Source: an uncultured Nitrospiraceae bacterium
Lineage (GTDB): Bacteria > Nitrospirota > Nitrospiria > Nitrospirales > Nitrospiraceae
DNA length: 64,000 bases
NCBI GenBank assembly: GCA_964555285.1
Contig: CAZKRM010000001.1
Location: 220,792-284,791, forward strand
Reading direction: 5' to 3'
This document shows positions 11,633 through 59,247 of this stretch, piece by piece (the stretch's first letter is position 1; every line of letters begins with the position of its first letter). The notes under the pieces were generated by a model that searched no databases, had not been told where the DNA came from, and worked only from the letters and a program-made list of their open reading frames with translations. Position numbers and translations under genes: made by a program.

Positions 11633-11701
11633 GTGAGTTCTGAGTTAGGAGTTCTGAGTCCTGAGTTGAACCCAGAACTCAAGACTCAGCACTCAGAACT
11701 G
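11633..11701. repeat. heptad-periodic hairpin (CTGAGTT type)
   Basis: Left arm GTGAGTT CTGAGTT AGGAGTT CTGAGTC CTGAGTT. Right arm AGAACTC AAGACTC AGCACTC AGAACTG. Lies between the purF stop and the next start. Confidence 0.85.
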
Positions 11702-11755
11702 CTCGTGTGCGTATCCTAACACGCGAAATTTTTCAGGGGCAACCAGCGGCGAAAC

Positions 11756-13168
11756 TCAGCGGGAGGATTCGAACAGACCCAGTTGCATTTCTTCCGCACG
11801 CGTGAAGGAGATCGGGTAGCGCTCGGTGAAGCAGGCGTTGCAATACTGGTCGGGCGTGCCCGGCGCGGATTTCAACATACCGTCGAGACTGAGATAGGCA
11901 AGACTGTCGGCCGTGATGTACTTGCGGATTTCTTCGGTCGAGTGGCTGGAGGCGATCAGCTCTTTCTTGGTCGGCGTGTCGATGCCGTAGAAGCAGGGGG
12001 AAACGATCGGCGGCGAGCTGATCCGCATGTGGACTTCCTTCGCGCCTGCGTTGCGAATCATCTTCACGATTTTCCGACTCGTCGTCCCGCGCACGAGGGA
12101 ATCGTCCACCACCACCACGCGTTTCCCGTGCAGCACCTCCGGCACCGCGTTCAACTTCACCTTGACGCCGAAGTGCCGGATGGATTGCTCCGGCTCGATG
12201 AAGGTGCGGCCCACGTAGTGATTCCGAATCAGTCCGGCCTCGAATGGAATGCCGGACCCTTCCGCATAGCCCAACGCCGCCGGCACACCGGAATCCGGCA
12301 CGGGAATCACCACATCCGCCGGCACCCACGACTCCTGCGCCAACTGCCGCCCCAGCGCCTTGCGTGTCCCGTACACGGCGCCGGCGCCGAAGATTTTGCT
12401 GTCCGGTCTGGCGAAGTACACGTACTCGAAAATGCACATCGCGGGTTTCGTCTGCGCGAACGGCCGATAGCTCTCGATTCCTTGTTCGTTCAGGACAATC
12501 AGCTCGCCCGGCTCGATCTCACGCACATACTCCGCATCCAGCAAGTCGAATGCACAGGTTTCCGAGGCGACGATCCAACTGTCGCGGACACGTCCCAGGC
12601 ACAGTGGCCGCAGGCCATAGGAATCGCGCGCCGCAATGATGCCATTGTCGGTCATCAGCACGACGGAAAACGCGCCTCGCACCTGGCTCAACGCATCCAC
12701 CACCCGCGCAAGGAGCGAGTCCGTCCGCGAATGGGCGATGAGGTGGATGATCACTTCGCTGTCCGACGTGGATTGGAAGATGGCGCCGTAGGCTTCGAGC
12801 TCGTTGCGGAGCACTTGGGCGTTGATGAGATTGCCGTTGTGCGCAAGCGCGAGGTTCCCGAACGCGAAGTTAACAATCAGTGGTTGAACGTTCTTGAGGT
12901 CGTTTCCGCCGGCCGTCGAGTAGCGATTGTGGCCGATGGCCATGTGGCCGACCAGCCGCTTCAGTGAAGACTTGTTGTAAATATCGGCGACCAGCCCCTG
13001 CCCCTTCTCCACATAGAAGTGCTCACCGTCGCCCGACACGATACCCGACGCCTCCTGCCCGCGATGCTGTAAGGCGTAGAGGCCGAGGTAGGCCATGTTG
13101 GAGGCTTCCTTGTGGCCATAGATCCCGAACACGGCGCACTCGTCGTGGAATTTATCGGGGCTGATCAT
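11756..13168 (-). CDS. purF: amidophosphoribosyltransferase PurF
   Basis: [10 protein letters not shown] gives an N-terminal nucleophile Cys after a short propeptide. PRTase motif [13 protein letters not shown]. Start 13168 gives a 10-aa propeptide. The alternative ATG 13228 would translate the hairpin. Confidence 0.93.
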
Positions 13169-13259
13169 GGGTAAGGGGCGAGGCGTGAGGCGTGAGAAGA
13201 TCGGAGAAAGTTTTTGGTTCTGGCTCATGACACCTTACCCCTGACTCCTAACCCCTTAC
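13169..13259. repeat. heptad-periodic hairpin (GTGAGGC type)
   Basis: Left arm GTAAGGG GCGAGGC GTGAGGC GTGAGAA. Right arm CCTTACC CCTGACT CCTAACC CCTTAC. Outer 8 bp are perfect. The right arm includes the purL stop codon. Confidence 0.75.
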
Positions 13260-15493
13260 TGCTGATCAAGTATCCGTTCGATCGCCTTCGCCCATCGGTC
13301 AAACATGGTCTCAACCGACAGGTCGATCGTGCAGCCGGCTCCCGGCCGGTCAGCGACGACATCCACAACCAGCCGCTCCCCGCCGACGGTGCCGATCACT
13401 TCAGCCGGCACACCGAACTCGCCGGCAATCTTCAACACCCGCTCGCGGTGACCGGAGCTCGCCGACAACACGACCCGCGACTGGCTCTCCCCAAAGAGTA
13501 AGGAGTCTTTTCTGAGCCGGCCGAGGCCCAATTGTACCACAGCACCGATCGGCCGGCTTGGGCCGGACATGCAGCATTCGGCTAAGGTGACCGCAAGTCC
13601 ACCATCTGAACAGTCATGAGCCGACTGGACCAGTCCTTCGCGAATCGTGGCCAGAACGCAGGCCTGCAGCGCTTTCTCTACCTCTAAGCTCAGCAGCGGC
13701 GGCGAGCCCTGTTCCCGCGAATGCGCGACACGCAGGTATTCCGTCCCGCCGATTTCGTCTTTCGTCACGCCCAATACGATGATGTCGTCTCCCGCCTGCT
13801 TGAACCACTGCGTCATCGCCCGGTCCGCCTCGTCGATGAGGCCGACCATGCCCAGCATCGGCGTCGGGTAGATCGAAAGCCCGTTCGTTTCATTGTAGAA
13901 ACTCACGTTGCCGCTCACGATGGGAACGCCGAAGTGCTCGCAGGCGTCCTTCATCCCCTCGATCGCCAGCACGAATTGCCACATGATGTCCGGCCGTTCA
14001 GGATTGCCGAAGTTCAGGCAGTCGGTCAGACCGATGGGCTCCGCGCCGGAGCATGCAAGGTTGCGCGCCGACTCCGCGACCGCGATCTTGGCCCCTTCAT
14101 AGGGCTGGAGCAGGCAATAGCGCCCGTTGCAATCAACCGTCATGGCGAGGGCCTTGTTCGTCCCCTTCACCCGGACCACTGCTGCGTCCGATCCCGGACG
14201 AACCATCGTGTTCGTCCGCACCATGTGATCGTACTGTTCATAGACCCAGCGTTTGCTGGCAATGGTCGGCGATTCCAGCAGTAACAGCAGCGCAGCGTTC
14301 GCATCCTTGACGTCCGGAATCGCATCGTAATTCAGGTTCGTCAGCATGTCCTGATACGCCGGCGGTGAATAGGGCCGCTCGTAGCGAGGCCCGTCGTCGG
14401 CCAGCGCCTTTGCCGGAATCTCGGCCACCACCTTCCCTTGATCCTTCACGCGCAACATCCCGTCGCCGGTCACCCGGCCCACCACCGCCACATCGAGATC
14501 CCACTTCTTGCAGATCCGGATGCAGTCTTCTTCCTTGCTGGCCTTGGCGACCATCAACATCCGTTCTTGCGATTCGGATAGCATCAACTCGTACGGCGTC
14601 ATGCCCGGCTCGCGCCGCGGCACATGGGTCAGGTCCATCTCAACGCCGGTGCCTTCGCGCGAGGCCATCTCGCAGGATGAACTCGTCAGCCCCGCGGCCC
14701 CCATATCCTGAATGCCCACGAGCAGATCGCCTGCCATCAGTTCGAGACAGGCCTCCAATAACAACTTCTCGGTAAAAGGATCGCCGACCTGAACCGTGGG
14801 CCGCTTCTGCTCGGATTGGTCATCGAACGAATCGGACGCCATCGTCGCTCCGTGAATCCCATCGCGGCCCGTCTTGGAGCCGAAGTAGATCACCGGGTTG
14901 CCGACACCGGCGGCCTTGCCCTTGAAAATCCGGTCCTTCTTGGCGATGCCGAGACAGAACACATTCACGAGAGGGTTTTGCGCATAGATGTCGTTGAAGA
15001 CAATTTCGCCGCCCACTGTCGGTACGCCCATGCAGTTGCCATAACCGGCAATGCCGGTCACGACTCCCTTCATCAGGTGACGATTCTTGGCCTGGTCGAG
15101 TCCGCCGAATCGCAGCGAATCGAGCAGCGCAATTGGCCTGGCCCCCATCGTAAAGATGTCGCGCAGGATCCCACCCACGCCGGTCGCCGCTCCTTGATAG
15201 GGCTCGATGAACGAGGGATGGTTGTGCGACTCCATCTTGAACACCACACACAACCCATCGCCGATATCCACCGCGCCGGCATTCTCGCCGGGCCCTTGCA
15301 CAACGCGAGGCCCAGTCGTCGGCAACTTCCGCAAATGCACCCGCGACGACTTGTAGGAACAATGCTCCGACCACATCACAGAAAACATGCCCAACTCGGT
15401 CAGATTCGGCTCCCGTCCCAAGATCTCGACGATCTTCTTATATTCATCGTCCGTCAGATTATGCTGGGCGAGGAGATCTTTGGTGATAATCAT
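13256..15493 (-). CDS. purL: phosphoribosylformylglycinamidine synthase subunit PurL (FGAM synthase II)
   Basis: 745 aa with full-length similarity pattern to PurL ([24 protein letters not shown]). Start set at ATG 15491-15493 ([13 protein letters not shown]). Confidence 0.95.
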
Positions 15494-15807
15494 TCCGTCA
15501 CATCCCATTGACCAGGTTCATAATGCCTCATCAGGTCCCGGCTTGAGTGAATCACCGCTTCGATGAAGCAGGTATCTTGGCGAATTTCGTAAATGATCCG
15601 ATAGGCTCCATGAATCAGTTCTCGAAGGTTGAGCAATTGGTACTCAGGAACTACTCTCCCAAGAGCGGGGTACTCCTTCAGCACTCGCAGCGCCTGGACC
15701 AATCGCTTAGAGAATCGCTCCGCATAGCGCGGAGAATCCATGGCAATGTATCTGACGATAACTTCTAAATCCTTCAGCGCCGGCCCTGTCCAGACGACTT
15801 TAGCCAC
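15490..15807 (-). CDS. RelE/ParE family type II toxin
   Basis: 105 aa. The pattern (M)[27 protein letters not shown]...L......L..P..G is typical of ParE/RelE plasmid-stabilisation toxins. GTG start with AGAGGG SD. Stop TGA overlaps the purL ATG. Confidence 0.8.
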
Positions 15808-15986
15808 TGATCTACCCTCTTTTCCGCTTCCTCTTGAGAAATAATGTCGCCGGCGTCCGCAGCGGCCATTCCGCGCTCAATCTTCTCCCTGACGTAGATG
15901 TGATACTGGATGTCCTCCCACGTGCAGTCCTCCGGCAGAGATTCCAGCATCTTCTTCATTTCCTCTTTGACCGTGGCCTTACTCAT
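15774..15986 (-). CDS. putative antitoxin (addiction-module component) paired with RelE/ParE
   Basis: 70 aa from ATG 15984-15986 (GGAGG SD). The C-terminal motif KIERGMAAADAGDIISQEEAEKRV is common in ParE-associated antitoxins. Confidence 0.6.
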   Translation of the reverse strand: MSKATVKEEMKKMLESLPEDCTWEDIQYHIYVREKIERGMAAADAGDIISQEEAEKRVDQWLKSSGQGRR

Positions 15987-16182
15987 AAGACCTCCCTGTC
16001 GCATATCCCAGTGCCGCCAAAACTTGCTCGTGGGTGATGACATAAGCTTCCTGCACCGCCTCAAATGTCTCCCCCGCAGCCAGCGCCCCCGCCACCGTCG
16101 CCACATCGATACGCGTCCCTGTCAGACAGGGCTTCCCAAACCGAATACCGGGGTCCATTGAGATACCAGGAAAGATTTCCAT
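15979..16182 (-). CDS. DUF433 domain protein (antitoxin-like HTH)
   Basis: MEIFPGISMDPGIRFGKPCLTGTRIDVATV...VLAALGYA matches the DUF433 signature (DP.I..GKP.I.GTRI.V). ATG 16182 has a GGAGG SD. Confidence 0.75.
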   Translation of the reverse strand: MEIFPGISMDPGIRFGKPCLTGTRIDVATVAGALAAGETFEAVQEAYVITHEQVLAALGYATGRSYE

Positions 16183-16209
16183 AGCCAAGGCCTCCTCTCC
16201 CCATACGCT

Positions 16210-16479
16210 CTACGCCAAGAGCGACATCACTTCGGTCGAGACGATGCGCGGAGATTTCCATACTCCATCAGCCGCACGTTGGTAGCCTGCCTCTTTTAGA
16301 ATATCGTCCAGCGTTCCCATCTTTTCCGCCTCTTCGACAAACAGACGGACGGCGGTCTTTAGATTACGCCTGGCCTCATCGCCGTCCTTCCCGCAACTGG
16401 AGACATCCAACTCAGGACAATGCGCCACGTAGGCTTTGCCTTCCTGGAAAATAATGGCATCAAACTCAATTGGAATCAT
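16210..16479 (-). CDS. HicB-like antitoxin (UPF0150 fold), no HicA partner seen
   Basis: MIPIEFDAIIFQEGKAYVAHCPELDVSSCGKDGDEARRNLKTAVRLFVEE is the typical HicB N-terminal domain pattern. The alternative start is ATG 16509. Confidence 0.7.
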   Translation of the reverse strand: MIPIEFDAIIFQEGKAYVAHCPELDVSSCGKDGDEARRNLKTAVRLFVEEAEKMGTLDDILKEAGYQRAADGVWKSPRIVSTEVMSLLA

Positions 16480-16598
16480 CGCAGCTTCCACATCAGACTT
16501 GGCTCGCATTCTGAAATCTCGACGATCTTCTTGTACTCGTCGTCCGTCAGATTATGCTGCGCGATGAGGTCTTTGGTGATGAGCTGCGCTGAAAGCAT
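16476..16598 (-). pseudogene. relic 5' end of purL (40-codon [32 protein letters not shown]...)
   Basis: Codons 6-28 match the N-terminus of the functional purL with mostly synonymous differences. The ORF then leaves purL sequence and stops at a TGA that overlaps the ATG of the HicB-like gene. Confidence 0.7.
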
Positions 16599-16643
16599 TG
16601 CCACTCTTACCCACTCTACGTTCAGATCGCCATGGATGCGTGA

Positions 16644-17552
16644 TCAGTCTTCCTCGAAGTAGTCGGAATCAATCCGCTTGATCGAGTAACTCGCGGTCTC
16701 AGTGACTCCGATCCCATGGTCCATCATCAACTGCGCAAGTTGCTCGCCATCTATCAAGACAATCTTTTTCTCGATCCTGCCTACATAGTCTTTTGCGTCT
16801 TGAGAAAACCTTGAAGTCGTAATCAGGACACCCTTCCGTGCCCGATGTCCCTCCAGGCTGCCTGCAAATTCTTGAACAGTAGGTCTGCCGACCGTAGCCT
16901 CCCATCTCTTTGCCTGGATATACACGACATCTAAGCCGAGCTTGTCTTCTTTAATGATTCCATCGACGCCTTCATCTCCACACCGTCCAACAGCTTGGCC
17001 GGCATCTTTCCTTGATCCGCCATAGCCAATGGCCACCAAGAGATCGACCACCAACCGCTCAAAAAACTTCGGCGAACAGCGCTTGACCCGATCCAGAACA
17101 TCCAATGCCAGCGCTCGCCGCAAGTCCTGATAGGCTACTTCGAGAGTTTCAAATGGAGTATGCTGGGCATCTTCCTCTTCAATCTCTTCTTCCTTTTGGG
17201 AAGAGCGCGTACCCCTCTGGAACTCCACGAACTCGGGAAACTGTTTGAGAAACCTGGTGTTAACCTCTGACGGCTTGCTGCCCAATACCTTGAGGCCCCT
17301 CTCAGCAATTCGAAACCGTCCTCTTCCTGGTCTTTCGAGTAACCCCGCCTTAGTGAGGTAGATTACAGCCCACGAGACTCTATTCTTCAGCTTCGACTGA
17401 GTGCCGCTGGGAAGTAATTCGTTCTTATCCTCTTCTCTCAAACTAAATTGTTCGGCCAACGTATCGTGAACTTCACCGGTACTGTGTTCCGCACCATCGC
17501 TTGCGATCCGTAGAATCGGAAACATGAACTTCTGATAGTCCGGAACCGCCAC
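16644..17552 (-). CDS. mrr: Mrr-family restriction endonuclease (Mrr_N winged helix + Mrr catalytic domain)
   Basis: (M)AVPDYQKFMFPILRI... N-terminus as in Mrr. The catalytic region is GDEGVDGII...VYIQAKRW. Looks AT-richer. GTG start with GGAG SD. Confidence 0.88.
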   Translation of the reverse strand: MAVPDYQKFMFPILRIASDGAEHSTGEVHDTLAEQFSLREEDKNELLPSGTQSKLKNRVSWAVIYLTKAGLLERPGRGRFRIAERGLKVLGSKPSEVNTRFLKQFPEFVEFQRGTRSSQKEEEIEEEDAQHTPFETLEVAYQDLRRALALDVLDRVKRCSPKFFERLVVDLLVAIGYGGSRKDAGQAVGRCGDEGVDGIIKEDKLGLDVVYIQAKRWEATVGRPTVQEFAGSLEGHRARKGVLITTSRFSQDAKDYVGRIEKKIVLIDGEQLAQLMMDHGIGVTETASYSIKRIDSDYFEED

Positions 17553-17705
17553 GTTCAGACCTCGCTCCGATACTTAATCGCCACAGTTCTGACTGATGGC
17601 ATTGACTGTGGGTGACGATGACCTGGGAGCCTGTACGCCCGCAGCGGGGTCCCTACACCGGGCGGGGTGCGAGGACGGACGGGCTGGTCAGCGGCAGGAC
17701 CCGCG

Positions 17706-18416
17706 TCAGGCTCCAACCATCTTCTTGTTTTTCAGCCCCTCCACCATCGACGCCAGAATCAACCGCCCATCTTCATTACCCAATACATCCTCCGCGCAGC
17801 GCTCCGGATGCGGCATCATGCCGAGCACGTTGCCTTCGGCATTGCGAATACCGGCGATGTTATCGAGGGAACCGTTCGGATTCGCCTCCGGCGTCACCTT
17901 GCCGTCAGCCGTGCAGTAGCGGAAGATCACCTGCGCGTTGGCCTGTAAGCCCGCTAGTGTGACCGGATCGGTGTAGTAGTTGCCGTCTGCATGGGCAATC
18001 GGAATCTTCAGCACTTGGCCGGATTCGCAGGCTCCCGTGAACGGCGTCGCAGCATTCTCGACCTTCACATACACGTCCTTGCAGATGAAGTGCAGCGACT
18101 GGTTCCGCAACATCGCGCCGGGCAGCAATCCCGCTTCCAAGAGAATCTGAAACCCGTTGCAGATGCCGAGCACCATGCCGCCTTCAGCCGCAAACTGCTT
18201 TACGGCTCCCATCACAGGAGAAAACCGTGCGATGGCGCCGGTGCGCAGATAGTCGCCATAGGAAAACCCGCCTGGCAGGATCACCGCGTCGAGGCCGGCC
18301 AACGACGTTTCCTTGTGCCAGATCATCTGCACGGATTGACCGAGCACATCGCGGAAGACATGCTCGCAATCGTGATCGCAATTGGAACCGGGGAAAACGA
18401 CGACGCCTATTTTCAT
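17706..18416 (-). CDS. purQ: phosphoribosylformylglycinamidine synthase glutaminase subunit PurQ
   Basis: [14 protein letters not shown]..., [19 protein letters not shown] and HPER are class I amidotransferase motifs. Confidence 0.95.
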
Positions 18417-18420
18417 AAAA

Positions 18421-18526
18421 GTTATGAGTTATGAGTGCTGAGTTGGTTCAGAGCCTTGAGTTCCCACTCCCGCTGAAGTTCAGGCAACTCAGAACCCAGA
18501 ACTCACAACTCAGAACTCGAACTCAG
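18421..18526. repeat. heptad-periodic hairpin (CTGAGTT type)
   Basis: Left arm GTTATGA GTTATGA GTGCTGA GTTGGTT CAGAGCC TTGAGTT. Right arm AACTCAG AACCCAG AACTCAC AACTCAG AACTCGA ACTCAG. Fills the purS-purQ spacer. Confidence 0.85.
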
Positions 18527-18532
18527 CGCGCC

Positions 18533-18778
18533 TCACTGGCCGCTGAGCTCGTACCGGTATTCCTCAATGATCGTGTTCGCCAGCAGCTTCTCGCACATGG
18601 CCTTGACCTCAGCCTCGGCCTTGGCCTTATCCTTCTCCGTCACATCCAACTCCATGTACTTCCCCACCCGCACATTGCCGGCATTCTTAAATCCCAGCGA
18701 GCCGAGCGCGTGCTCGATGGCTTTCCCCTGCGGATCAAGAATCCCCTGCTTCAACGTCACATGAATCTTCGCTTTCAC
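18533..18778 (-). CDS. purS: phosphoribosylformylglycinamidine synthase subunit PurS
   Basis: 81 aa. (M)KAKIHVTLKQGILDPQGKAIEHAL is the canonical PurS pattern. GTG start with AAGGGGGG SD. Confidence 0.92.
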   Translation of the reverse strand: MKAKIHVTLKQGILDPQGKAIEHALGSLGFKNAGNVRVGKYMELDVTEKDKAKAEAEVKAMCEKLLANTIIEEYRYELSGQ

Positions 18779-18792
18779 TGTCCCCCCCTTAC

Positions 18793-18917
18793 CAGGATGC
18801 TGAAAAAGTCCGCCAGCTTCGTTCTCGGCTCATCGAAATCCTCAACGTACCCCTGAGGGTACGCCTCCGGTTTCGACTCGCCTGCGGCCTTGCTGAACGG
18901 CCTTTTTGAGCATCCTG
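18793..18917. repeat. 125-bp long imperfect palindrome, a different family from the REP-like elements
   Basis: CAGGATGCTGAAAAAGTCCG ... CGGCCTTTTTGAGCATCCTG termini, with central GTACCCCTGAGGGTAC. Gives pseudo-ORFs ...KKSASFVLGSSKSSTYP and MLNGLFEHPA. Confidence 0.75.
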
Positions 18918-18966
18918 CGGAAATGATTTCCCCCACCATCCATTCGTTCCGCCTTTACCCCTCAAT

Positions 18967-19062
18967 GAAGGGCGGCATGAATGCTCTCACCTGCGCGCAT
19001 CGGACGAGCACCGTTTTACCGTGCGCGTTCTGCGAGCACAGAGAGCGTTCATGTCGCCCTCC
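18967..19062 (+). repeat. REP-like element, copy D
   Basis: Arms GAAGGGCGGCATGAATGCTCTC / GAGAGCGTTCATGTCGCCCTCC. Core ACCTGCGCGCATCGGACGAGCAC CGTTTTACC GTGCGCGTTCTGCGAGCAC. Confidence 0.85.
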
Positions 19063-19067
19063 CCCCC

Positions 19068-19268
19068 TCACGGTTGGCTCCTCTGCTCAGATGCTTTAGT
19101 CTGCCTGTCCACGTATTTCCTGATCCAGAAAATCCCTGCGATCGTCCCGAATCCACCAAAAACAAGCGCCACAAAGGCCCAGCGCCAGGGTGACTCGTTC
19201 AGGCGATAGGCCATCATGCCCACCACCGCCGCCCACACCAGAATGGACGCCACCAGACCATAATTCAT
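19068..19268 (-). CDS. hypothetical small membrane protein
   Basis: 66 aa from internal ATG (MNYGLVASILVWAAVVGMMAY...ALVFGGFGTIAGIFWI), two TM helices. The upstream part of the track ORF runs towards REP copy E. Confidence 0.45.
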   Translation of the reverse strand: MNYGLVASILVWAAVVGMMAYRLNESPWRWAFVALVFGGFGTIAGIFWIRKYVDRQTKASEQRSQP

Positions 19269-19351
19269 GAACAACCGCAGAAACCTCTTCACTCTTTTTC
19301 TTCCTTCTTCCTTCTTCCCTTCCTCTAAAGGAAGGATTGGGAGATTCCTAT

Positions 19352-19449
19352 GAGGGGATGGTGAGGTTGTCCTCAACTGCGCGCGTCCAACGAGGGCCTT
19401 CTTAGGCCGCGCGTTGCGCGAGCAAAGAGGACGGCCTCACCATCCCCTC
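19352..19449 (+). repeat. REP-like element, copy E
   Basis: Arms GAGGGGATGGTGAGGTTGTCCTC / GAGGACGGCCTCACCATCCCCTC (two T-G). Core AACTGCGCGCGTCCAACGAGGGCC TTCTTA GGCCGCGCGTTGCGCGAGCA. Confidence 0.85.
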
Positions 19450-19465
19450 CAACCCCTCCGTCCCC

Positions 19466-20173
19466 TCATCCACAAACCCTCTTCAATACTTCCTGATACG
19501 CCTCTTCAATCTTTCCCAACTCCTTCCTGAACCGATCTTTGTCCATCGACTCGCCCGTCGTCATGTCCCAGAAGCGGCAGGTGTCCGGAGAAATCTCGTC
19601 CGCCAGGATCAGTCTGTTGTGATACACGCCGAACTCCAGCTTGAAATCCACCAGGGTCATCTGCCGTTCCTTGAAGAACGGCGCCAGAATCGAGTTCACT
19701 TTCAAAGCGAGGTCCTTTATCTCGCGCACCACGGCGGGCGTCGCGAGCTTCAACAGACGAACGTGCTCTTCGCTGATGAGCGGATCGCCTAACGCATCGT
19801 GCTTGTAGTAGAACTCGACGATGGCCGGCTCGATCGCCTCGCCTTCTGTGAGTCCCAGCCGCTTGGCTAAACTGCCGGCCACGATGTTCCGCACCACCAC
19901 CTCGATGGGGACGATCGTGACTCTCTTCGTCAGCATCTCGCGGTCGCTCAACCGCTCGACAAAGTGCGTCGGCACACCGCCCTGCTCCAGCAGGTGGAAC
20001 AGCCGCTCCGACACCTTGTTGTTCACCACGCCCTTCTCGACGATGGTGCCGCGCTTCTGCGCATTGAACGCCGTCGCATCGTCTTTGAAGTATTGGACCA
20101 CGCGGTCGGGCTGCTCGGTCGCAAAGATTTTCTTCGCCTTGCCCTCGTAGAGCATCTCGCCCTTTGCAATCAT
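19466..20173 (-). CDS. purC: phosphoribosylaminoimidazole-succinocarboxamide synthase PurC
   Basis: 235 aa. YEGKAKKIF..., VVRN.. GS and DEISPDTCRFWD are SAICAR synthase motifs. ATGA overlap with purB. Confidence 0.95.
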   Translation of the reverse strand: MIAKGEMLYEGKAKKIFATEQPDRVVQYFKDDATAFNAQKRGTIVEKGVVNNKVSERLFHLLEQGGVPTHFVERLSDREMLTKRVTIVPIEVVVRNIVAGSLAKRLGLTEGEAIEPAIVEFYYKHDALGDPLISEEHVRLLKLATPAVVREIKDLALKVNSILAPFFKERQMTLVDFKLEFGVYHNRLILADEISPDTCRFWDMTTGESMDKDRFRKELGKIEEAYQEVLKRVCG

Positions 20174-21501
20174 CTTCCACGCTTCCTTCGTACGCGATCG
20201 GCCGATGGCTTTCCAAATACCCGCCGAAAAATCTTGTCCATATGCCGCACGTAATACTGGGGATTGAAACAGGCCCTAATCTCGGCCGCCTGGAGATGCT
20301 TCGAGATGAAGGGATCTTGGCCGACCAGTTCCTGGAACCCTGCCCCGCCTTTCCAGGCGCTCATCGCGTTCCGTTGAACCGCTTCGTAGGATTCTTTCCG
20401 TTGCGCGCCCTTGTCGATCAACGCCAGCAGGAGCCGCTGCGAATAGACCAGCCCGCCGGTCAGTTCGAGGTTCTGTTTCATGCGGGCCGGATAGACCAGC
20501 AGGTTCTTGATCAAATCCGTGACCCGCGCCAGCATGTAATCCACAAGGATCGTGCTGTCCGGCATGATGACGCGCTCGACGGAGGAATGGCTGATGTCGC
20601 GCTCGTGCCACAACGCGACGTTCTCCATCGCCGCCAGGCTGTTCGCCCGCACCACGCGCGCCAGCCCGCACAAATTCTCCGAGGCGATGGGATTCCGTTT
20701 GTGCGGCATCGCGGAGGATCCCTTTTGCCCTTCGGAGAAATACTCCTCGGCTTCGAGCACTTCTGTCCGTTGGAGATGGCGAATCTCCGTCGCACACTTC
20801 TCGATGCTGGCGGCCAGGAGCGCCAACGCCGACGCATACGCCGCATGGCGATCCCGCTGCACGATTTGGTTCGACACCGGGTCCGTCTTCAGCCCCAACT
20901 TCGCGCAGACATACTCTTCGATCTCCGGCCCCTGGTGCGCGAAGGTCCCCATCGCGCCGGAGAGCTTGCCGACGGCGATCTCGTCCCGCACCGCCTTGAG
21001 CCGCTCGCGATGCCGGCAGACTTCTTCGTACCAGATGGCCAGCTTGAAGCCGAAGGAAATGGGCTCGCCATGAATGCCGTGCGAGCGCCCGACCATAATC
21101 GTGTGCCGGTGCTGGTACGCCCGCTTCTTCAGCACGGCAATGAACTCATCCAGGTCCTCCAGAATCATGTCCAGCGCCTCCGTCATCTGGATGGCCAACG
21201 ACGTATCCACGATATCCGAGGAGGTCAGCCCCATGTGGAGGAAACGCGCGTCGGGACCGACCGGTTCGGCCAGCGATTCGAGGAAGGCGATCACATCATG
21301 TTTGGTGACTGTTTCGATCTTGGCAATACGCGCGACGTCGATGCGCGCCTTGCGACGGATGCGCGCGGTGGCTCCCCTCGGCACCTGGCCCGTCCGCTCG
21401 AAGGCGGCGCACGCCTGCAACTCGACTTCGAGCCAGATTTCGTACTTGTGCTTCAGGTCCCAGATGGCTTTCATCTTGGGACGGGTGTAGCGGTCGATCA
21501 C
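20170..21501 (-). CDS. purB: adenylosuccinate lyase PurB
   Basis: (M)IDRYTRPKM..., the fumarate-lyase signature GSSAMPHKRNP. GTG start. Confidence 0.95.
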   Translation of the reverse strand: MIDRYTRPKMKAIWDLKHKYEIWLEVELQACAAFERTGQVPRGATARIRRKARIDVARIAKIETVTKHDVIAFLESLAEPVGPDARFLHMGLTSSDIVDTSLAIQMTEALDMILEDLDEFIAVLKKRAYQHRHTIMVGRSHGIHGEPISFGFKLAIWYEEVCRHRERLKAVRDEIAVGKLSGAMGTFAHQGPEIEEYVCAKLGLKTDPVSNQIVQRDRHAAYASALALLAASIEKCATEIRHLQRTEVLEAEEYFSEGQKGSSAMPHKRNPIASENLCGLARVVRANSLAAMENVALWHERDISHSSVERVIMPDSTILVDYMLARVTDLIKNLLVYPARMKQNLELTGGLVYSQRLLLALIDKGAQRKESYEAVQRNAMSAWKGGAGFQELVGQDPFISKHLQAAEIRACFNPQYYVRHMDKIFRRVFGKPSADRVRRKRGR

Positions 21502-21511
21502 GGGATTTCAC

Positions 21512-21588
21512 CATTGGCACATTGGATCATTGAATCATTGCTGAAGTTCCGGCCAATGATTCATTCGGCAATGAATCAATCGTCAATG
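21512..21588. repeat. octad-periodic hairpin (CATTG type)
   Basis: Left arm CATTGGCA CATTGGAT CATTGAAT CATTG. Right arm CAATGATT CATTCGG CAATGAAT CAATCGT CAATG. Lies between the nusB stop and purB start. Confidence 0.8.
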
Positions 21589-50874: not shown

Positions 50875-50881
50875 AAGCCCT

Positions 50882-50979
50882 GAGCAATCAGCTTTCAGCT
50901 ATCAGCACTCAGCCATCAATGCGAGGAAGGAGATGATATTCTCCCTTCGAGCTGATCGCTGCCGGCTGACTGCTGATGG
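50882..50979. repeat. heptad-periodic hairpin (TCAGC type) upstream of nadE
   Basis: Left arm AATCAGC TTTCAGC TATCAGC ACTCAGC CATCAAT. Right arm GCTGATC GCTGCCG GCTGACT GCTGATG. Apical stem GAAGGAGA..TCTCCCTTC. Confidence 0.8.
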
Positions 50980-50989
50980 CGACCGCGGT

Positions 50990-51032
50990 AAAAAAAAACG
51001 CCCTCGGTCTCTTAACGAGAGCCAGAGGACGT
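50990..51032 (-). terminator. rho-independent terminator downstream of ureD
   Basis: Minus strand: ACGTCCTCTGGCTCTC GTTAA GAGACCGAGGGCGT followed by T9, preceded by GGACAACG. Confidence 0.85.
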
Positions 51033-51153: not shown

Positions 51154-52077
51154 TCAATACCGTCGCAAGACCGCAGCGGGTAGGCTCCAGAGATGCCTGC
51201 GAACCGATCCCCAGAGGGCATCCATTGTCGCGCTCAGGTCTGGAGCCGACCGAGCCACCAGCTTGACGGCCAATCCCGGAGCTCCCGGCTCGGAGACACC
51301 CCCCAGCACCTGACTGTGCCGCTCATGGAGGATCGTCGCCAAGCTCTCTTCCAGCCGCTTCCAGGCTTCGGCGTTGACGGCATCGCCGATGACAAAGAGG
51401 GACGCGACATAGTCCCAATCGCCGGCGAAGCCAACCGGATGAGGGCCGGCTTGGGGGGTGAGCCGATATCGCTCCAGTACCGATGCGCCGGACGCCGTGA
51501 TCATCCGAATCTCGTTCTCGAAGCTGGTGAACTGCCAACGCTCCCCTCTCGCCACACGACCGGAGGCCACAGCGTCCCACAGGAGGATCGTGGCGCCCGG
51601 AGCGAGGGTGGCATGGAGCACCTGGCGGAATCGCGATCCGGCAAACGGGATCGTCACATCGGGGACCCATTCCAGGATGGCCCCAGGGCCAAGTGAAAGC
51701 TCCACGGTTTGGATAGCCGGCTCCCCCAGGCTGCGATAGACCCGATTGGCTGAAGGGGTTGAGATGATGACATGGGCACCTTCACCCAGGTTCGCATTGA
51801 TCGTGAGCCGATCTCCTCCCACCAATCCGCCTGACGGATTGACGAGCAGCGTGTAGGCACTGCCGGTCTCATCCAGGTCGATGGGTGGGAAGTGATGCCA
51901 AGGGCTTGTGCTGCGGGAACGGGCGAGGACGGTCCGACCGTCCCGGCGCTCATATTCAAACGAGAGATCGCCGACTCGACCGACGGATGAGAGTTCTAAG
52001 GCGTTCGAGGTTCGAGGTTCGCAGTTCGATTCAAGCAGAGAGTCGCTCTTTAACTTCGAACTTCGAACTTCGAACAT
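51154..52077 (-). CDS. ureD: urease accessory protein UreD
   Basis: ...GDLSFEYERRDGRTVLARSRS...LLVNPSGGLVGGDRLTI aligns with the UreD family. The only in-frame canonical start is ATG 52075-52077 (GAGGAG SD), so ~24 N-terminal codons are hairpin sequence. Confidence 0.88.
   Translation of the reverse strand: MFEVRSSKLKSDSLLESNCEPRTSNALELSSVGRVGDLSFEYERRDGRTVLARSRSTSPWHHFPPIDLDETGSAYTLLVNPSGGLVGGDRLTINANLGEGAHVIISTPSANRVYRSLGEPAIQTVELSLGPGAILEWVPDVTIPFAGSRFRQVLHATLAPGATILLWDAVASGRVARGERWQFTSFENEIRMITASGASVLERYRLTPQAGPHPVGFAGDWDYVASLFVIGDAVNAEAWKRLEESLATILHERHSQVLGGVSEPGAPGLAVKLVARSAPDLSATMDALWGSVRRHLWSLPAAVLRRY
52003..52075. repeat. heptad-periodic hairpin (TTCGAAC type) inside the ureD 5' coding end
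   Basis: Left arm GTTCGAG GTTCGAG GTTCGCA GTTCGAT TCAAG. Right arm AACTTCG AACTTCG AACTTCG AAC. Confidence 0.85.
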
Positions 52078-52095
52078 CTGAATCAGCTCCTCAAC

Positions 52096-52761
52096 CTAAC
52101 CCTTGACCTTCCCCTGCGGCATGCCCTGCTCGACCCACTCGACCACCCGATCGAGTCCTTGTCCAGTGAGTAGATTCGTGAAGATGAACGGCAGCTCGCC
52201 GCGCATGCGGCGGCTGTCGCGCTCCATCACCGCGAGATCGGCTCCCACGTGCGGAGCCAGATCGATCTTGTTGATCACGAGGAGGTCCGAGCGTGTGATG
52301 CCGGGCCCGCCCTTGCGGGGAATCTTATCGCCCGCCGCTACATCGATGACATAGATGACGCGATCCGCAAGCTCAGGGCTGAACGTCGCCGCCAGGTTAT
52401 CGCCTCCGCTCTCCACGAACATGAGTTCGACATCCGGATGACGCTTGAGCAGATCGTCCAGCGCTTCCTGATTGTGGGAGGCATCCTCGCGGATCGCCGT
52501 GTGAGGACAACCGCCGGTTTCGACACCGATGATGCGATCGGCCGGCAAGGCTCCTCGCCTGGTCAAAAACTCCGCGTCTTCCTTCGTGAAGATGTCGTTG
52601 GTCACGACGGCGAGACTGTACCGATCGCGCAGCTTCAGACAGAGCGCCTCGACCAATGCCGTCTTCCCCGAACCGACCGGCCCGCCGACGCCAATGACCG
52701 GAATGTTGGCAGCACGAGCCAGCGTCGGCTTGCCGTTGCCGTGATGGTGGTGTTCGTGCAT
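52096..52761 (-). CDS. ureG: urease accessory GTPase UreG (His-rich N-terminus)
   Basis: [10 protein letters not shown]..., P-loop [15 protein letters not shown]. Confidence 0.96.
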
Positions 52762-53495: not shown

Positions 53496-55223
53496 TCAAA
53501 ATAAGAAATACCGTTGCGCCATCGGGAGCACCGCCATCGGGTCGCATTTCAGCACCTGCCCGTCAGCCTTGACGACATAGGTCTCCGGATCGACCTCGAT
53601 CTTCGGCAGCGCGTCATTCAACTTCAAATCGCGTTTGCCGATGCTCCGACACCGTTTCACCGCCGCCGCGCGTTTCTGGAGCCCCAAGCTCTTCGGCACC
53701 TCACGATCCAACGCGATTCCCGACAAGAACGTCAGGCTCGTACTATACGGCGCCCGGCCGAAGCTCCCGAACATGGGCCTGGTCACCACCGGCTGCGGCG
53801 TCGGGATGGACGCGTTCGGATCGCCCATCGCAGCCGACATCAGGAATCCGCCCTTCACCACCATGTCTGGTTTCACGCCGAAGAAGGCCGGTTTCCAGAT
53901 CACGAGATCGGCCAGCTTGCCCACTTCAACCGATCCAACTTCGTGTGCGATGCCGTGTGTGATCGCGGGATTGATCGTATACTTGGCCACGTAACGGCGG
54001 ACCCGAAAATTATCGTTGGCATTGGACAACGCATCCGTCGAAGTCTGCGACAGATGCCCGCGCTGCGCTTTCATCTTGTGCGCCGTCTGCCAGGTGCGGA
54101 TGATCACTTCGCCTACCCGCCCCATCGCTTGAGAGTCCGACGACATGATGCTGATCGCCCCCATGTCGTGCAGGATATCCTCGGCAGCAATCGTTTCCCG
54201 CCGAATGCGCGACTCGGCAAAGGCAATGTCTTCCGGCACCCGTGGGTTCAAATGGTGACAGACCATGAGCATGTCCAGATGCTCATCCATCGTATTGACC
54301 GTGAAGGGCATCGTCGGATTCGTAGACGACGGCAACACGTTCGGCTCGCCGCACACCCTCATGATGTCCGGCGCGTGACCGCCGCCGGCCCCTTCGGTAT
54401 GGAAGGAGTGGATCGTGCGGCCCTTGAAAGCCTTGATCGTATCTTCGACGAAGCCGGCCTCGTTCAACGTGTCGGTGTGAATCGCGACCTGCACGTCGAA
54501 TTCTTCCGCCACATCAAGACAGGTCGAAATCGCCGCCGGCGTCGTGCCCCAATCTTCATGGAGCTTCAATCCGATCGCGCCGGCCTCGACCTGCTCGCGC
54601 AGCCCCTCCGGCAACGAGGAGTTGCCCTTGCCCAGGAACCCCAGATTGATCGGGAATCCTTCAGCCGCTTCCAACATGCGATGGATATTCCAGGCTCCCG
54701 GCGTGCAAGTGGTCGCGTTCGTGCCGGTGGCCGGGCCAGTGCCGCCGCCGATGAGGGTAGTCAGTCCGTTCGCCAAGGCTTCATTGATAATCTGCGGGCA
54801 GATGAAGTGAATGTGCGTATCGATGCCGCCGGCCGTGACGATCTTCCCCTCCGCCGAGATCACCTCGGTGCAGGCCCCGACTTCCATGCCCTTCGTCACG
54901 CCCTCCATCAAGTCCGGATTGCCTGCCTTGCCGACTCCCACAATGCGGCCGTCTCGAATCCCGATGTCGGCTTTCACGACGCCCCACCAATCGAGCACAA
55001 TAGCATTCGTAATCACGACATCCAGTGCCCCCTTCGCCCGCGTGGCTGAAGACGACTGGCCCATGCCGTCACGAATCACTTTCCCGCCGCCGAACTTCGC
55101 CTCCTCCCCCGGCACGGTCAGATCGCGGGTGATCTCGATCAGCAACTCAGTATCGGCAAGACGAATGCGATCCCCTGTAGTGGGACCGTACAGATCGTTA
55201 TATTGGCGGCGGGGAATTTTCAT
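53496..55223 (-). CDS. ureC: urease alpha subunit UreC
   Basis: 575 aa. [23 protein letters not shown] (carbamylated Lys context), MVCHHL. Confidence 0.98.
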
Positions 55224-55269
55224 CAGTCTAGGTTCTCCTCTTCACTCTCTGCCCTCGCTTCTAGGATCA

Positions 55270-55368
55270 GGAGGGTTGGCCGGACTGTCCTTTCACTGCG
55301 CGCATCGAACGAGCACAGCTTCATCGTGCGCGTTCTGCGAGCACAAAGGGCGGTCCGGCCGACCCTCC
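55270..55368 (+). repeat. REP-like element, copy H (followed by a half core to ~55410)
   Basis: Arms GGAGGGTTGGCCGGACTGTCCTTT / AAAGGGCGGTCCGGCCGACCCTCC (three T-G). Core CACTGCGCGCATCGAACGAGCAC AGCTTCATC GTGCGCGTTCTGCGAGCAC. Followed by GAGGGTGCGGGTGGCGCGAGCAC. Confidence 0.85.
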
Positions 55369-55413
55369 ATCCTCCGACACCTTCCGAGGGTGCGGGTGGC
55401 GCGAGCACAGGAC

Positions 55414-56196: not shown

Positions 56197-56326
56197 AGCC
56201 AAACCCCGTCACTCGTCAATGGTGAGGAATCACGCGACTCTCTCAATCGGCGAATCGTGACAGTCACTAATCCGACCCTCTCTTCCTTACTCTCTCACCC
56301 CGACGGGCAAGAGGCGTCATCGTCGG

Positions 56327-57911: not shown

Positions 57912-57990
57912 GGAGTGCTGAGTGTTGAGTTCTACGTTCTGAGTTTGGACAGAGCAACTCAGAAACTCAAAACTCAGCACTCAGCACTCC
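57912..57990. repeat. heptad-periodic hairpin (CTGAGTT type)
   Basis: Left arm GAGTGCT GAGTGTT GAGTTCT ACGTTCT GAGTTTG. Right arm AACTCAG AAACTCA AAACTCA GCACTCA GCACTCC. Lies in the urtC-urtD spacer. Confidence 0.85.
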
Positions 57991-58000
57991 TAACTGTCGG

Positions 58001-59155
58001 TTAGCCTTTGCTCGCTGGTTCAGGAACGGCCACGTGTTTATTGAAGCCCCGCCGGCCGCTGCCCAATCTTCGAAACACCCCGACCAGGCCGTCGGGGAAC
58101 AGCAACACCACGACAATGAACAGCCCGCCCAGGAAGAACGGCCACAGCTCCGGGAAATAGTTCGTCAGCATGCTTCGCCCCAGATTCACCCCGACCGCGC
58201 CGATGATGGCCCCAACCAGCGAGCCTCGCCCACCGACCGCCACCCAGATCACCATCTCCAAGGACGGCAGCACGCCGATCTGCGCCGGCGTGATGATGCC
58301 GACCTGGGGGACATAGAGCATGCCGGCCAACCCCGCCAGCGCGGCCGACACGACAAAGACGAACAGCTTGTAGTTCGCCGGCGAATAGCCGGAGAAGAGC
58401 ACACGCTGCTCGCTGTCCCGCACCGCCACCAACACTTTGCCCGCCCGCGATGTGATGATCCATCGGCAGAGCAGATAAGCCCCGCCGAGGCAAAGCACGG
58501 TGAGGACGTACAGCGCCCGCTGGGTACCCGGATCGCTCAACCGAAAGCCGAGCACCTGCTTGAAGTCGGTCAGCCCGTTGGTGCCGCCAAGATTGGTTTC
58601 ATTGCGGTTGAAGACGAGCCAGGCGGACAGAGCAAGCGCTTGCGTAATGATCGCGAAATAGACGCCCTTGATCCGGCTCCGAAACGCTAGGAATCCAAAG
58701 ATCGACGCACACGTGACCGGGACGAAAATCGCCCCCGCCACCGCGAGCGGAAAGCTATAGAACGGTTTCCAGAACCACGGCAATTCCTTGACCTGGTTCC
58801 AGACCATGAAATCCGGCAGGTTGCTCCCGTACACGCTCTCGGTGCCGATGGTCAGCATCAAGTGCATGCCGATGCAATAGGCGCCAAGCCCGAAAAACAC
58901 GCCGTGGCCTAAGCTCAGAATACCGGTGTAGCCCCAGATGAGATCCAGTCCAAGGGCGAGGACGGCAAAGGCGAGAAACTTCCCGAAGCGGTTGAGCGTG
59001 AAATCCGAGACGTGCAGCCAGGAGTCTTCTCCCGGCAAGACATTCAGTGCCGGCAGGATGATGAGGAGGAACAGTCCCACGAGCCAGAAAGTGAGCCCTT
59101 CGCCTCGCTCCTCGCCACCCACAACTCGATCACCCTGCTCTCTGAGATCAGCCAT
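58001..59155 (-). CDS. urtC: urea ABC transporter permease UrtC
   Basis: 384 aa polytopic LivM-like permease in the urt cluster. Confidence 0.9.
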   Translation of the reverse strand: MADLREQGDRVVGGEERGEGLTFWLVGLFLLIILPALNVLPGEDSWLHVSDFTLNRFGKFLAFAVLALGLDLIWGYTGILSLGHGVFFGLGAYCIGMHLMLTIGTESVYGSNLPDFMVWNQVKELPWFWKPFYSFPLAVAGAIFVPVTCASIFGFLAFRSRIKGVYFAIITQALALSAWLVFNRNETNLGGTNGLTDFKQVLGFRLSDPGTQRALYVLTVLCLGGAYLLCRWIITSRAGKVLVAVRDSEQRVLFSGYSPANYKLFVFVVSAALAGLAGMLYVPQVGIITPAQIGVLPSLEMVIWVAVGGRGSLVGAIIGAVGVNLGRSMLTNYFPELWPFFLGGLFIVVVLLFPDGLVGVFRRLGSGRRGFNKHVAVPEPASKG

Positions 59156-59182
59156 GACGTTCCTGACCGTATCGATCGGGAT

Positions 59183-59247
59183 CGAGTGCTGAGTGCTAAG
59201 TTCTGAGTTGGAACCTGAATCCGAAACTCAGCACTCAGCACTCAAAA
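59183..59247. repeat. heptad-periodic hairpin (CTGAGTG type)
   Basis: GAGTGCTGAGTGCT pairs perfectly (14 bp) with AGCACTCAGCACTC. Lies in the urtB-urtC spacer, abutting the urtB stop. Confidence 0.85.

Follow-up and report, generated by a model that had tools for sequence, protein, structure and literature searches.

Heptanucleotides have been reported as the commonest class of long simple-sequence repeats (SSRs) in bacteria with large genomes (LSSR5-11; Mrazek et al. 2007, as relayed in PMC4679880). Here we describe twelve hairpins, H1 to H12, in a stretch of 64,000 nt, hereafter the window, from an uncultured Nitrospiraceae bacterium (assembly GCA_964555285.1, contig CAZKRM010000001.1, positions 220,792 to 284,791), in each of which the arms are themselves short tandem arrays. 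A preliminary description of this DNA had found no described element class with such an architecture, yet two were already in the literature: the short tandemly repeated repetitive (STRR) hairpins of cyanobacteria (PMC2670836) and the convergent GGGAATC pairs of Xanthomonas (PMC4692102). The twelve loci are inverted heptanucleotide SSRs of the same kind as these, with arms of period 7 at most loci, complementary inverted arrays lying close together and an intergenic location.

In filamentous cyanobacteria, STRR hairpins of 7-bp units are "not unusual", for example between hupS and hupL, and roles in transcript stability or translational coupling have been proposed for them (PMC2670836). The tandem 7-bp units, the intergenic or intercistronic spacers that they occupy and the capacity to form hairpins all recur here, and inverted CTGAGTG arrays were found in the cyanobacteria Calothrix, Nostoc, Anabaena, Aulosira and Dulcicalothrix among the matches listed in the genome search described below. 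STRRs were defined in heterocystous cyanobacteria and with other units, however, whereas the host here is a Nitrospira, many unit families coexist and the inverted pair is the rule. The STRR units are said to be those of Mazel et al. in 1990, namely CCCCAGT, TTGGTCA and CAACAGT. As these differ from the units of the window, and as the PurQ of the latter (17706-18416, minus strand) is 86-93% identical to proteins of Nitrospira metagenome-assembled genomes and of Nitrospira sp. KM1, the hairpins are not STRRs in the strict sense.

The GGGAATC arrays of Xanthomonas mostly comprise ~4 units, are 89-93% intergenic and form 70-75 convergent pairs per genome, with the possibility of stem-loops or cruciforms (Rehm et al. 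2015; PMC4692102). The upstream open reading frame (ORF) is on average 28 nt away and the downstream one 160 nt, and repeat length varies among related species while the repeat type is kept (PMC4692102). The present hairpins, taken together from the window and other genomes, show the same asymmetry, being closer to the upstream than to the downstream ORF. Unlike the single G-rich unit per genome of these proteobacterial hosts, with its G-quadruplex potential, the Nitrospira units are diverse and not prone to form G-quadruplexes.

A further parallel comes from experiment. In the 5' untranslated region (5'-UTR) of Haemophilus influenzae hmw1A, an (ATCTTTC)n tract forms a long hairpin that is cut by RNase III, and change in repeat number requires transcription, the hairpin and RNase III (PMC12721329). 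As would be the case here, a transcribed heptamer SSR forms the arm of a long RNA hairpin; in contrast to the genome-wide, intercistronic hairpins of Nitrospira, only one arm is a repeat (the other is G-rich), the tract has at least 11 units, and it belongs to a single phase-variable virulence locus. Likewise, the TAACTGA heptamers of Beggiatoaceae, also present in Cyanobacteria and Bacteroidetes, often lie just 5' of start codons that lack a Shine-Dalgarno (SD) sequence (PMC4679880). These and the long SSRs at large share with the present elements a dominant heptanucleotide period, an intergenic location, frequent proximity to such SD-less start codons and a sporadic spread among large-genome environmental bacteria, but TAACTGA arrays are direct, with one inverted case among 170 sets.

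Repetitive extragenic palindromes (REPs) depend for their mobility on RAYT transposases, and their copies, which are nearly identical, have a conserved GTAG or CGTC head (PMC3116915). Like REPs, BIMEs and REPINs, the heptad hairpins are intergenic palindromes within operons; unlike them, they have periodic arms and no sequence conserved over families. The REP between malE and malF acts as a barrier to 3'-5' exonucleases and modulates the expression of operon segments. With at least six unit families at twelve loci, and copies of the same family that share neither loop nor ends, the present elements are not REPs or REPINs, and inspection of the flanks revealed neither the common core nor the flanking direct repeats of a miniature inverted-repeat transposable element (MITE). 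Rfam (release 15) gave no match over any hairpin in the window, at gathering score or at E values up to 5, and none in 18 loci of other phyla; a full-text literature search for the strings CTGAGTG and ACTCAGC returned no relevant paper, only irrelevant primer matches.

Architecture and placement of the twelve hairpins

Inverted repeats with tandem-array arms are present at all twelve loci where the preliminary description had placed them. In the following list, z-scores compare predicted folds of the minus-strand (sense) RNA with dinucleotide shuffles, and MFE denotes minimum free energy.

H1, 11631-11705, minus strand: CTGAGTT-type heptad arms of ~5 units each (MFE -54.9, z -4.1), between the purF stop (11756) and the start of a thioredoxin-like gene (11617), with a GAGGAGG SD after the 3' arm.
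H2, 13169-13262, minus strand: sense 5' arm of GTAAGGG type and 3' arm of CTCACGC/CCCTTAC (z -3.3); the purL stop (13256-13258) is overlapped by the 5' arm, the 3' arm reaches the ATG at 13168, and an in-frame ATG (13228) lies in the loop.
H3, 18417-18528, minus strand: CTGAGTT-type heptad arms of 3.6 and 6 units around a long central part (z -3.2), beginning 4-6 nt past the purS stop (18533-18535) and ending 0-3 nt before the purQ ATG (18416), which has no SD.
H4, 21508-21590, minus strand: CATTGNNN arms of period 8/15 with a weak fold (z -0.5), between the nusB stop (21597-21599) and the purB GTG (21501); a homologous hairpin occurs in the related locus L251.
H5, 22056-22156, minus strand: octad hairpin GCTGACAG / CCTGTCAG (z -8.8); the 5' arm codes for the RibH C-terminal tail, the ribH stop (22096-22098) is in the loop, and the 3' arm lies 9 nt from the nusB ATG (22046), with no SD.
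H6, 24091-24204, minus strand: CTGAGTT-type heptad arms with a ~50-nt central part (z -2.6), 5' of the ribBA ATG (24077).
H7, 35838-35887, minus strand: compact CTGAGTT-type heptad hairpin (z -5.1), directly 3' of the Rieske gene stop (35885-35887), with the cytochrome b ATG (35819) 18 nt downstream.
H8, 47583-47668, minus strand: TCAGC/GCTGA-rich inverted repeat of irregular periodicity, the weakest member (z -1.5), between the amt stop (47674-47676) and the glnB (PII) ATG (47557).
H9, 50881-50980, minus strand: NNTCAGC / GCTGANN heptad hairpin (z -3.2), with the nadE ATG (50874) 7-10 nt downstream and a classical U-tract terminator (50986-51032) upstream.
H10, 52000-52078, minus strand: GTTCGAG / AACTTCG heptad hairpin (sense fold -34.5, antisense -41.4), 18 nt past the ureG stop (52096-52098), which may fall inside ureD if the ATG at 52077 is used; its arms mismatch as G·T on the plus strand and C·A on the sense strand.
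H11, 57912-57993, minus strand: CTGAGTG/T heptad hairpin (z -6.9), ~7 nt past the urtC stop (58001-58003) and 4 nt before the probable urtD ATG (57907), with no SD.
H12, 59183-59247, minus strand: CTGAGTG/T heptad hairpin (z -6.7), directly 3' of the urtB stop (59248-59250), with the urtC ATG (59155) 27 nt downstream.

Tandem Repeats Finder reported periods of 7, 8 or 14/15 in both arms at eight loci (those starting at 11633, 13169, 18421, 21512, 22056, 24091, 52003 and 59183) and a single periodic arm at 35841, 50882 and 57912. A purpose-made array detector, employed besides it, found the second arm at 35841 to be periodic too; the locus at 47583, which is barely periodic, gave no row from Tandem Repeats Finder. 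With the two programs combined, the period is 7 at 8-9 of the 12 loci and 8 at H4 and H5. The arms had been described as arrays of 3-6 units; arrays they are, but with a copy number of 2.3-6 units per arm. Units of the CTGAGTT/AACTCAG type build six loci (11633, 18421, 24091, 35841, 57912 and 59183), in agreement with the earlier count, and share no core and no ends. The remaining units, GTAAGGG/CTCACGC (13169), CATTGNNN (21512), GCTGACAG (22056), TCAGC/GCTGA (47583, 50882) and GTTCGAG/AACTTCG (52003), bring the total to at least six families over the twelve loci, and their complementarity between arms is as had been described.

The minus-strand RNAs of the twelve loci are predicted to fold with -23 to -55 kcal/mol, and z-scores range from -2.6 to -8.8 at ten of them. 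Only 21512 (z -0.5) and 47583 (z -1.5) are weak by this measure, such that ten loci stand as robust periodic-arm hairpins, with 21512 let down by its poor fold and 47583 by its scant periodicity. The predicted stems are near-continuous and 20-35 bp long, as RNase III requires of its substrates, making them candidates for cleavage. When the arms are shifted by one period, ~55-100% of positions can still pair, whereas shifts out of period leave ~20-45% at the period-7 loci and, for a shift of 3 nt, 40-50% at the two loci of period 8; the suggestion of a slippable stem that pairs in several registers is thus upheld. In H10, every unit of one arm mismatches the complement of the other arm at the same position, and one arm is 100% and the other 85% periodic: the arms have been homogenised internally.

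Chance is excluded as an explanation for these structures. A strict detector found 19 arrays of period 7 or 8 in the window and six strictly paired inverted loci, relative to a mean of 2.33 arrays (maximum 6) and a mean of 0 pairs in 100 dinucleotide shuffles. Solitary arrays are the exception, because 16 of the 19 fall within the twelve hairpins. By a curated gene map, non-coding DNA makes up 5,561 of the 64,000 nt (8.7%), with 39 spacers of at least 40 nt, and the centre of every one of the twelve hairpins falls within it, an outcome to which a plain calculation for random placement gives a probability of ~0.087^12. The preference for seven extends beyond the window: across 200 kb of Nitrospira DNA, 34 of 46 arrays have period 7 (n=34), compared with 3, 6, 2 and 1 for periods 5, 6, 8 and 9.

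The genes around the hairpins, all on the minus strand, were confirmed by NCBIfam and Pfam as purF, purL, purQ, purB, nusB, ribH, ribBA, cytochrome b, the Rieske protein, glnD, PII, amt, nadE, ureD/G/C and urtA-D. Looking up the exact UreC and PurS protein sequences gave no match. Measured along the sense strand, H7 and H12 begin 0-3 nt past the upstream stop codon and H3, H4, H8 and H11 4-8 nt past it; H2 overlaps the upstream stop, and H5 holds the ribH stop in its loop. At the other end, the 3' arm lies 0-10 nt from the start codons of purQ, nusB, nadE and urtD, all of which have no or a weak SD, and H1, H6, H7, H8 and H12 end 13-28 nt before a start codon, leaving space for one. These distances bear out the observation that the hairpins often touch a stop or start codon. 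The placement in short spacers of minus-strand operons (pur, rib/nusB, bc complex, amt/PII, ure and urt) also holds in that all twelve are centred in non-coding DNA, but H2, H5 and possibly H10 are not strictly intercistronic. For example, the 5' arm of H5 encodes a Lys/Arg-rich C-terminal tail of RibH that is kept in two relatives, L250 and L252. The 3' arm of H2 probably lies within the PurF propeptide, as the in-frame ATG at 13228 in its loop opens a peptide matching the KM1 N-terminus MQTQKDLPLV. Similarly, H10 may lie inside the 5' end of ureD, where GAGGAG precedes the ATG at 52077 and the Pfam UreD domain begins only at residue 78.

As a separate observation, heptad or octad arrays enter coding sequence at 22099-22160, 13169-13228 and 52000-52077 of the window, and at 6882-6904 of L002, 7066-7095 of L004 and 6268-6297 of L250. 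The parts entered are the RibH C-terminal tail, the NusB C-terminal tail in relatives, the PurF propeptide and possibly the UreD N-terminus, and ORF-based gene calls are shifted or lengthened there.

Turnover in Nitrospira and recurrence across phyla

The orthologous pur/rib region of seven other Nitrospira sources, in which gene order is conserved, illustrates how these hairpins change. The purS-purQ spacer contains different heptad units in four genomes (CTGAGTT in the window, GCTTATG in L002, GATGAGT/CTGAGTG in L252 and GTGACNN in L253), a long REP-like hairpin in L004, L250 and L251, and 2 nt in KM1. At the purL-purF junction, the hairpins of the window, L253, L252 and L004 are built from drifted units, GTAAGGG, GGCGTAA, ACGTGAA and GGCGATA, respectively, with the opposite arm altered in step; L250 has a single arm there, and KM1 a 5-nt spacer with no hairpin. 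RNAalifold applied to these four orthologues gave a weak consensus of -5.9 kcal/mol with 4 compensatory pairs and ambiguity of register, which is suggestive of covariation between the arms. The CCTGTCAG hairpin at the ribH-nusB junction is common to the window, L250 and L252; where it is missing, the spacer is 2 nt (TAAnnATG or TAGnnATG in L001, L004 and L253) or 3 nt (L251). In KM1, all four pur/rib junctions have spacers of 2-5 nt or overlapping genes, and 20.7 kb hold one array.

Between species, then, both the number and the sequence of units vary at orthologous sites. Among near relatives, the contigs recovered show no difference in sequence, neither L254 and L255 from the window nor L002 from L003. 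For instance, at the amt-PII junction the Logan contigs L254 (SRR4343426) and L255 (SRR4343439) agree with the window at 100% of the 161 aligned nt (the 116-nt spacer and flanks), and the same strain is therefore present in those samples. It follows from the orthologous spacers that hairpins can persist across species, drift with matched arms, be replaced, or be missing from a whole lineage. The preliminary description had proposed this comparison as a check, and it is answered in part: hairpins recur in the spacers of relatives and the arms co-vary at purL-purF, but the units often differ and KM1 has none. From several Nitrospira genomes, with KM1 a poor one, we infer that the trait is lineage-wide. 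Two aspects appear to be new: that orthologous operon spacers of relatives hold hairpins with different or co-varying units where KM1 has 2-5 nt, and that many unit families occur within Nitrospira.

The same comparison revealed two differences in gene content. A gene of the chlorite dismutase family lies between purB and purC in L001, L250, L252 and L253; there is none at that spot in the window, L002, L004 or L251. The gap between purL and purQ (window 15509-17705) has a lower GC content (0.54-0.58) and carries a gene for an Mrr-type restriction endonuclease (16644-17552), and in other Nitrospira it is empty or is occupied by toxin-antitoxin genes or DNA methyltransferases. This part of the pur cluster resembles a hot spot for insertions.

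Beyond Nitrospira, we searched for the pattern CTGAGTNCTGAGT-N(1-31)-ACTCAGNACTCAG, which has 2 matches in the window and 0 in shuffles of it. The GTDB set, one genome per species, yielded at least 120 matches to this CTGAGTN hairpin. Judged by record title, the hosts among the matches listed are Acidobacteriota (Blastocatellia, Pyrinomonadaceae, Thermoanaerobaculia and Terriglobia), Cyanobacteria (the five genera named above), Planctomycetota, Chloroflexota, Gemmatimonadota and Nitrospirota, with single records from Actinomycetota, Bacteroidota, Bacillota and Pseudomonadota. Recurrence of the CTGAGTN hairpin in ~10 phyla, among these matches, also appears to be new. Locus GC spans 0.36-0.73, and the seventh base is G in most groups. 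In the same 8-kb loci (878 kb from other genomes), ~38 further hairpins occur as bystanders, and between them they use ~35 other units of heptad or octad length; hence the class is general and its unit sequence free, with CTGAGTN still the commonest single unit by far. The hairpin loops also attract attention in these loci: in Thermoanaerobaculia and other Acidobacteriota they often carry CCCACCC or GGGTGGG, and in Blastocatellia and cyanobacteria an A-run followed by a T-run (L009, L016, L018, L034, L046, L065, L072, L089, L090 and L099).

Viral contigs of IMG/VR contain 5 forward CTGAGTN hairpins and no match in the mirror order, with the ACTCAGN arm first. In metagenomes the mirror order has at least 120 matches, the unit being mostly AGTACTC among those listed, such that a strict polarity of the arms is rejected; there is a bias only, forward exceeding mirror order by ~14:1 among non-ascertained copies. 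Two other candidate rules also failed. In CTGAGTN hairpins every reading frame of the first arm meets a TGA on either strand, as in a three-frame stop cassette, yet with other units the arm that bears the stops precedes its partner in 18 cases and follows it in 14 (p 0.6), and a cassette is rejected as a general rule. By inspection, a shared motif such as NNNNAGT fits only ~1/3 of the units.

Pooled statistics were drawn from 150 hairpins of the window and the genome loci, with genes from a crude ORF-based caller. By gene context, 81 hairpins are co-directional, 18 convergent and 17 divergent, against baseline gaps of 290, 93 and 118; the divergent share shows a mild deficit (14.7% versus 23.5%), and the convergent share (15.5%) is not enriched over baseline. 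The almost exclusively co-directional placement noted at first is true of this window, but it is mostly a property of the window, as other genomes show convergent and divergent cases. From the stop codon of a gene reading in to the hairpin, the median distance is 4 nt (<10 nt in 103 of 128), and from the hairpin to the start codon of a gene reading away it is 22 nt. Arms have a median length of 4.4 units, and the gap between arrays a median of 15 nt. Periodicity within an arm (0.907) equals complementarity between arms (0.909). Arrays between co-directional genes have a partner in 50 of 86 cases and those between convergent genes in 6 of 18, though these numbers are too small to carry weight.

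How the hairpins may arise and what they may do

The reading that we favour, with belief and doubt about evenly balanced, is that the hairpins grow in place by slippage and arm matching, persist where 7-base indels are harmless, and give rise to RNA stems abutting stop codons as a consequence. Growth in place, rather than mobile copies or sites for one protein, is preferred because units are diverse, copies have neither core nor ends in common, period 7 prevails, the arms of H10 are internally homogenised, and presence or absence runs through whole lineages. The sequences themselves establish the anatomy, non-randomness, period, unit diversity, turnover, taxonomic distribution and positions, and from these we infer the mutational steps and every RNA-level effect. 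The origin would lie not in the insertion of a mobile-element copy but in a short intergenic palindrome, each arm of which lengthens by units of 7 nt through slippage during replication; the match between arms would then be maintained either because one arm of the quasi-palindrome serves as template for the other or because unmatched variants are lost. Both duplication within an arm by strand slippage and templated correction across a quasi-palindrome are established processes. Such elements would survive only where 7-nt indels do no harm, and this tolerance would therefore explain their locations in spacers, dispensable protein tails and a propeptide.

Transcribed within operon mRNAs, the hairpins would fold into stems of 20-35 bp, each starting a few nt past the upstream stop and ending at or just before the downstream ribosome-binding site or start codon. 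By holding stop and start close together, the stem could allow termination-reinitiation coupling to survive an enlargement of the spacer by ~100 nt, and could also serve as a natural RNase III site and exonuclease barrier. In KM1 the pur/rib gene pairs lie 2-5 nt apart or overlap, as in classical coupling, and in hairpin-bearing genomes the two extremities of the stem lie at the same stop and start, so that folding would keep the two adjacent. Position is the strongest hint of function that the sequence offers, and a role of the hairpins as RNase III or translational-coupling elements is plausible; mRNA stability or processing and coupling of translation, both among the roles first suggested, would agree with this anatomy.

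Several observations weigh against growth by slippage with RNA stems as its outcome. Arm lengths correlate weakly (r 0.16), and repeat-number polymorphism, the direct signature of slippage, does not appear among the near relatives recovered, which are all identical. Slippage and drift do not account for the CTGAGT core as the commonest unit in ~10 phyla, among the matches listed, at genome GC of 0.36-0.73, nor for the ~14:1 arm order. Around 30% of hairpins lie between convergent or divergent genes, where coupling is inapplicable. Across phyla the sense strand is the more stable in 38 cases and the less stable in 32 (p 0.57), with 117 versus 107 G·U pairs, and within Nitrospira, where orientation is certain, the counts are 15 and 7 (p 0.14). 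In the absence of a significant sense bias, the RNA-level part is unsupported by that test, and a purely DNA-level object fits equally well.

Tentatively, the hairpins might instead be RNA elements under selection, acting as stabilisers, RNase III processing sites or coupling gates, with periodic arms simply because mutation lengthens a stem most readily in that way. In 7 of 8 Nitrospira genomes the same operon spacers carry a long hairpin, although of differing sequence, and at purL-purF 4 pairs have changed on both sides among 4 sequences. Their abutment on stop codons and under-representation in divergent gaps fit such selection, as does H5, whose loop encloses the ribH stop and which ends 9 nt before a nusB start without SD, exactly where hairpin-free genomes have TAAnnATG. 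Precedents exist in the Haemophilus hmw hairpin (PMC12721329) and in the coupling or stability proposed for STRRs (PMC2670836). Against it, neither stability nor G·U pairs significantly favour the sense strand; H10 and the purL-purF hairpins of three genomes fold better as antisense. Moreover, KM1 runs the same operons without hairpins, and the start codon may follow the hairpin, lie inside it or precede it (H3, H2 and H10, respectively), such that no single mechanism fits.

A bolder proposal, which we regard as doubtful, sets the commonest unit apart. Here [CTGAGTN]n-loop-[NACTCAG]n would be a distinct, GC-independent element of ~10 phyla with conserved machinery, an intercistronic punctuation that begins at the upstream stop and, by folding, hands the terminating ribosome to a start often lacking an SD, and the other heptad families would be products of the same process from other seeds. 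Candidate machinery might be RNase III-linked, RNA-dependent control of repeat length or a putative binding or nicking protein. Unlikely, in turn, is the idea that the hairpins are arrays of binding sites for a protein or RNA that reads the heptad as double-stranded DNA, cruciform or single-stranded RNA, with CTGAGTN as the cognate unit. The strong over-representation of CTGAGTN (6 of 12 window hairpins), the same core in ~10 phyla whatever the GC of the genome, among the matches listed, the preference for one arm order and the clustering of arm length near 4.4 units would suit a dedicated reader, but half of the window hairpins and ~35 bystander unit types use unrelated units, a 7-bp period mismatches the helical repeat of DNA or A-form RNA, both arm orders exist and the analysis turned up no candidate for such a protein. 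Recognition of a 7-nt period by a protein, one of the roles first suggested for these loci, is thus unlikely in general, given at least six unit families in the window and ~35 further units in other hairpin-bearing genomes.

We think it very unlikely that the hairpins are miniature mobile elements, MITE- or REPIN-like, that inserted between genes and then diverged. They are indeed intergenic, palindromic and numerous, they are present or absent at orthologous sites (none in KM1, one in the window), the same unit in distant phyla could mean horizontal transfer, and five copies reside in viral contigs of IMG/VR. Copies have only the repeated unit in common, however, and no loop, core, termini or target duplications; units differ between neighbouring loci, and homologous hairpins are kept at the same site across species with both arms drifting gradually.

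Least credible of all are unconventional intrinsic terminators or attenuators without a U-tract, since, for all that stable stems immediately follow stop codons and 15.5% of hairpins lie between convergent genes, no hairpin has a U-tract on either strand, convergent gaps are not enriched over baseline, most hairpins sit inside co-functional operons (purS-purQ, urtB-C-D, Rieske-cytochrome b) where termination would be harmful, and the genome possesses, at 50986-51032, a classical terminator that ends in nine U residues. Within 10 nt past the hairpins, T residues number at most 5 on either strand (H5 sense, dispersed and without a run), and none of the six hairpins within 11000-25000 is called terminator-like; intrinsic (Rho-independent) termination is rejected, as the preliminary description had correctly concluded from the missing U-tracts. 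The classical terminator itself (sense = minus) has a GC-rich stem and lies downstream of ureD, just upstream of H9 and nadE; this genome therefore does use U-tract terminators.

A second hairpin family and wider significance

The window also harbours a second family of intergenic hairpins, with a core ..TGTGCTCGC.GA.C.CGCAC, a loop and GTGCTCGTTCGATGCGCGCAG, set within long, perfectly paired outer stems that vary by copy. Its sites are 2234-2361, 9153-9316, 18779-18880, 19377-19465, 22591-22868 (two copies), 32710-32730, 33252-33353, 55224-55413 (two copies) and 56203-56310, and it also occurs in L004, L250, L251, L252 and L253, in some of which it takes the place that heptad hairpins have in the corresponding spacers of the window. 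With up to 4 substitutions allowed, the 3' half-core matches 9 times in the window versus 0 in 20 shuffles; 8 of the 9 are gene-sense, as are 11 of 11 matches in related Nitrospira loci. Rfam has no match to this family. Beside one REP-like hairpin, at 2233-2261, three tandem 9-nt units (sense GGGATGAAA), each with GGGA and then ATG, mark the start of the gene at 1910-2233. Two Rfam matches elsewhere call for caution. For example, 5_ureB_sRNA matches 54782-55073 (plus strand, 76.8 bits) antisense to ureC, which probably reflects conservation of urease coding sequence rather than an sRNA, and the DnaX frameshift element matches weakly at 25845-25908 (plus strand), at the start of the ORF 25835-27835, with 23.1 bits against a gathering score of 35 and an E value of 0.89, probably by chance.

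On a practical level, heptad hairpins distort gene calls, producing false N- or C-terminal extensions at purF, ribH and ureD, and are likely breakpoints in short-read assemblies. More broadly, the window provides a compact and well-annotated case, in essential operons of a nitrite oxidiser, of the commonest long SSRs of environmental bacteria. It opens the questions of coupling across enlarged spacers, of RNase III sites, and of whether RNA folding feeds back on repeat length as reported in Haemophilus. The recurrence of CTGAGTN from cyanobacteria to Acidobacteriota and Planctomycetota, if it is not convergence, points to a shared mechanism that has yet to be described.

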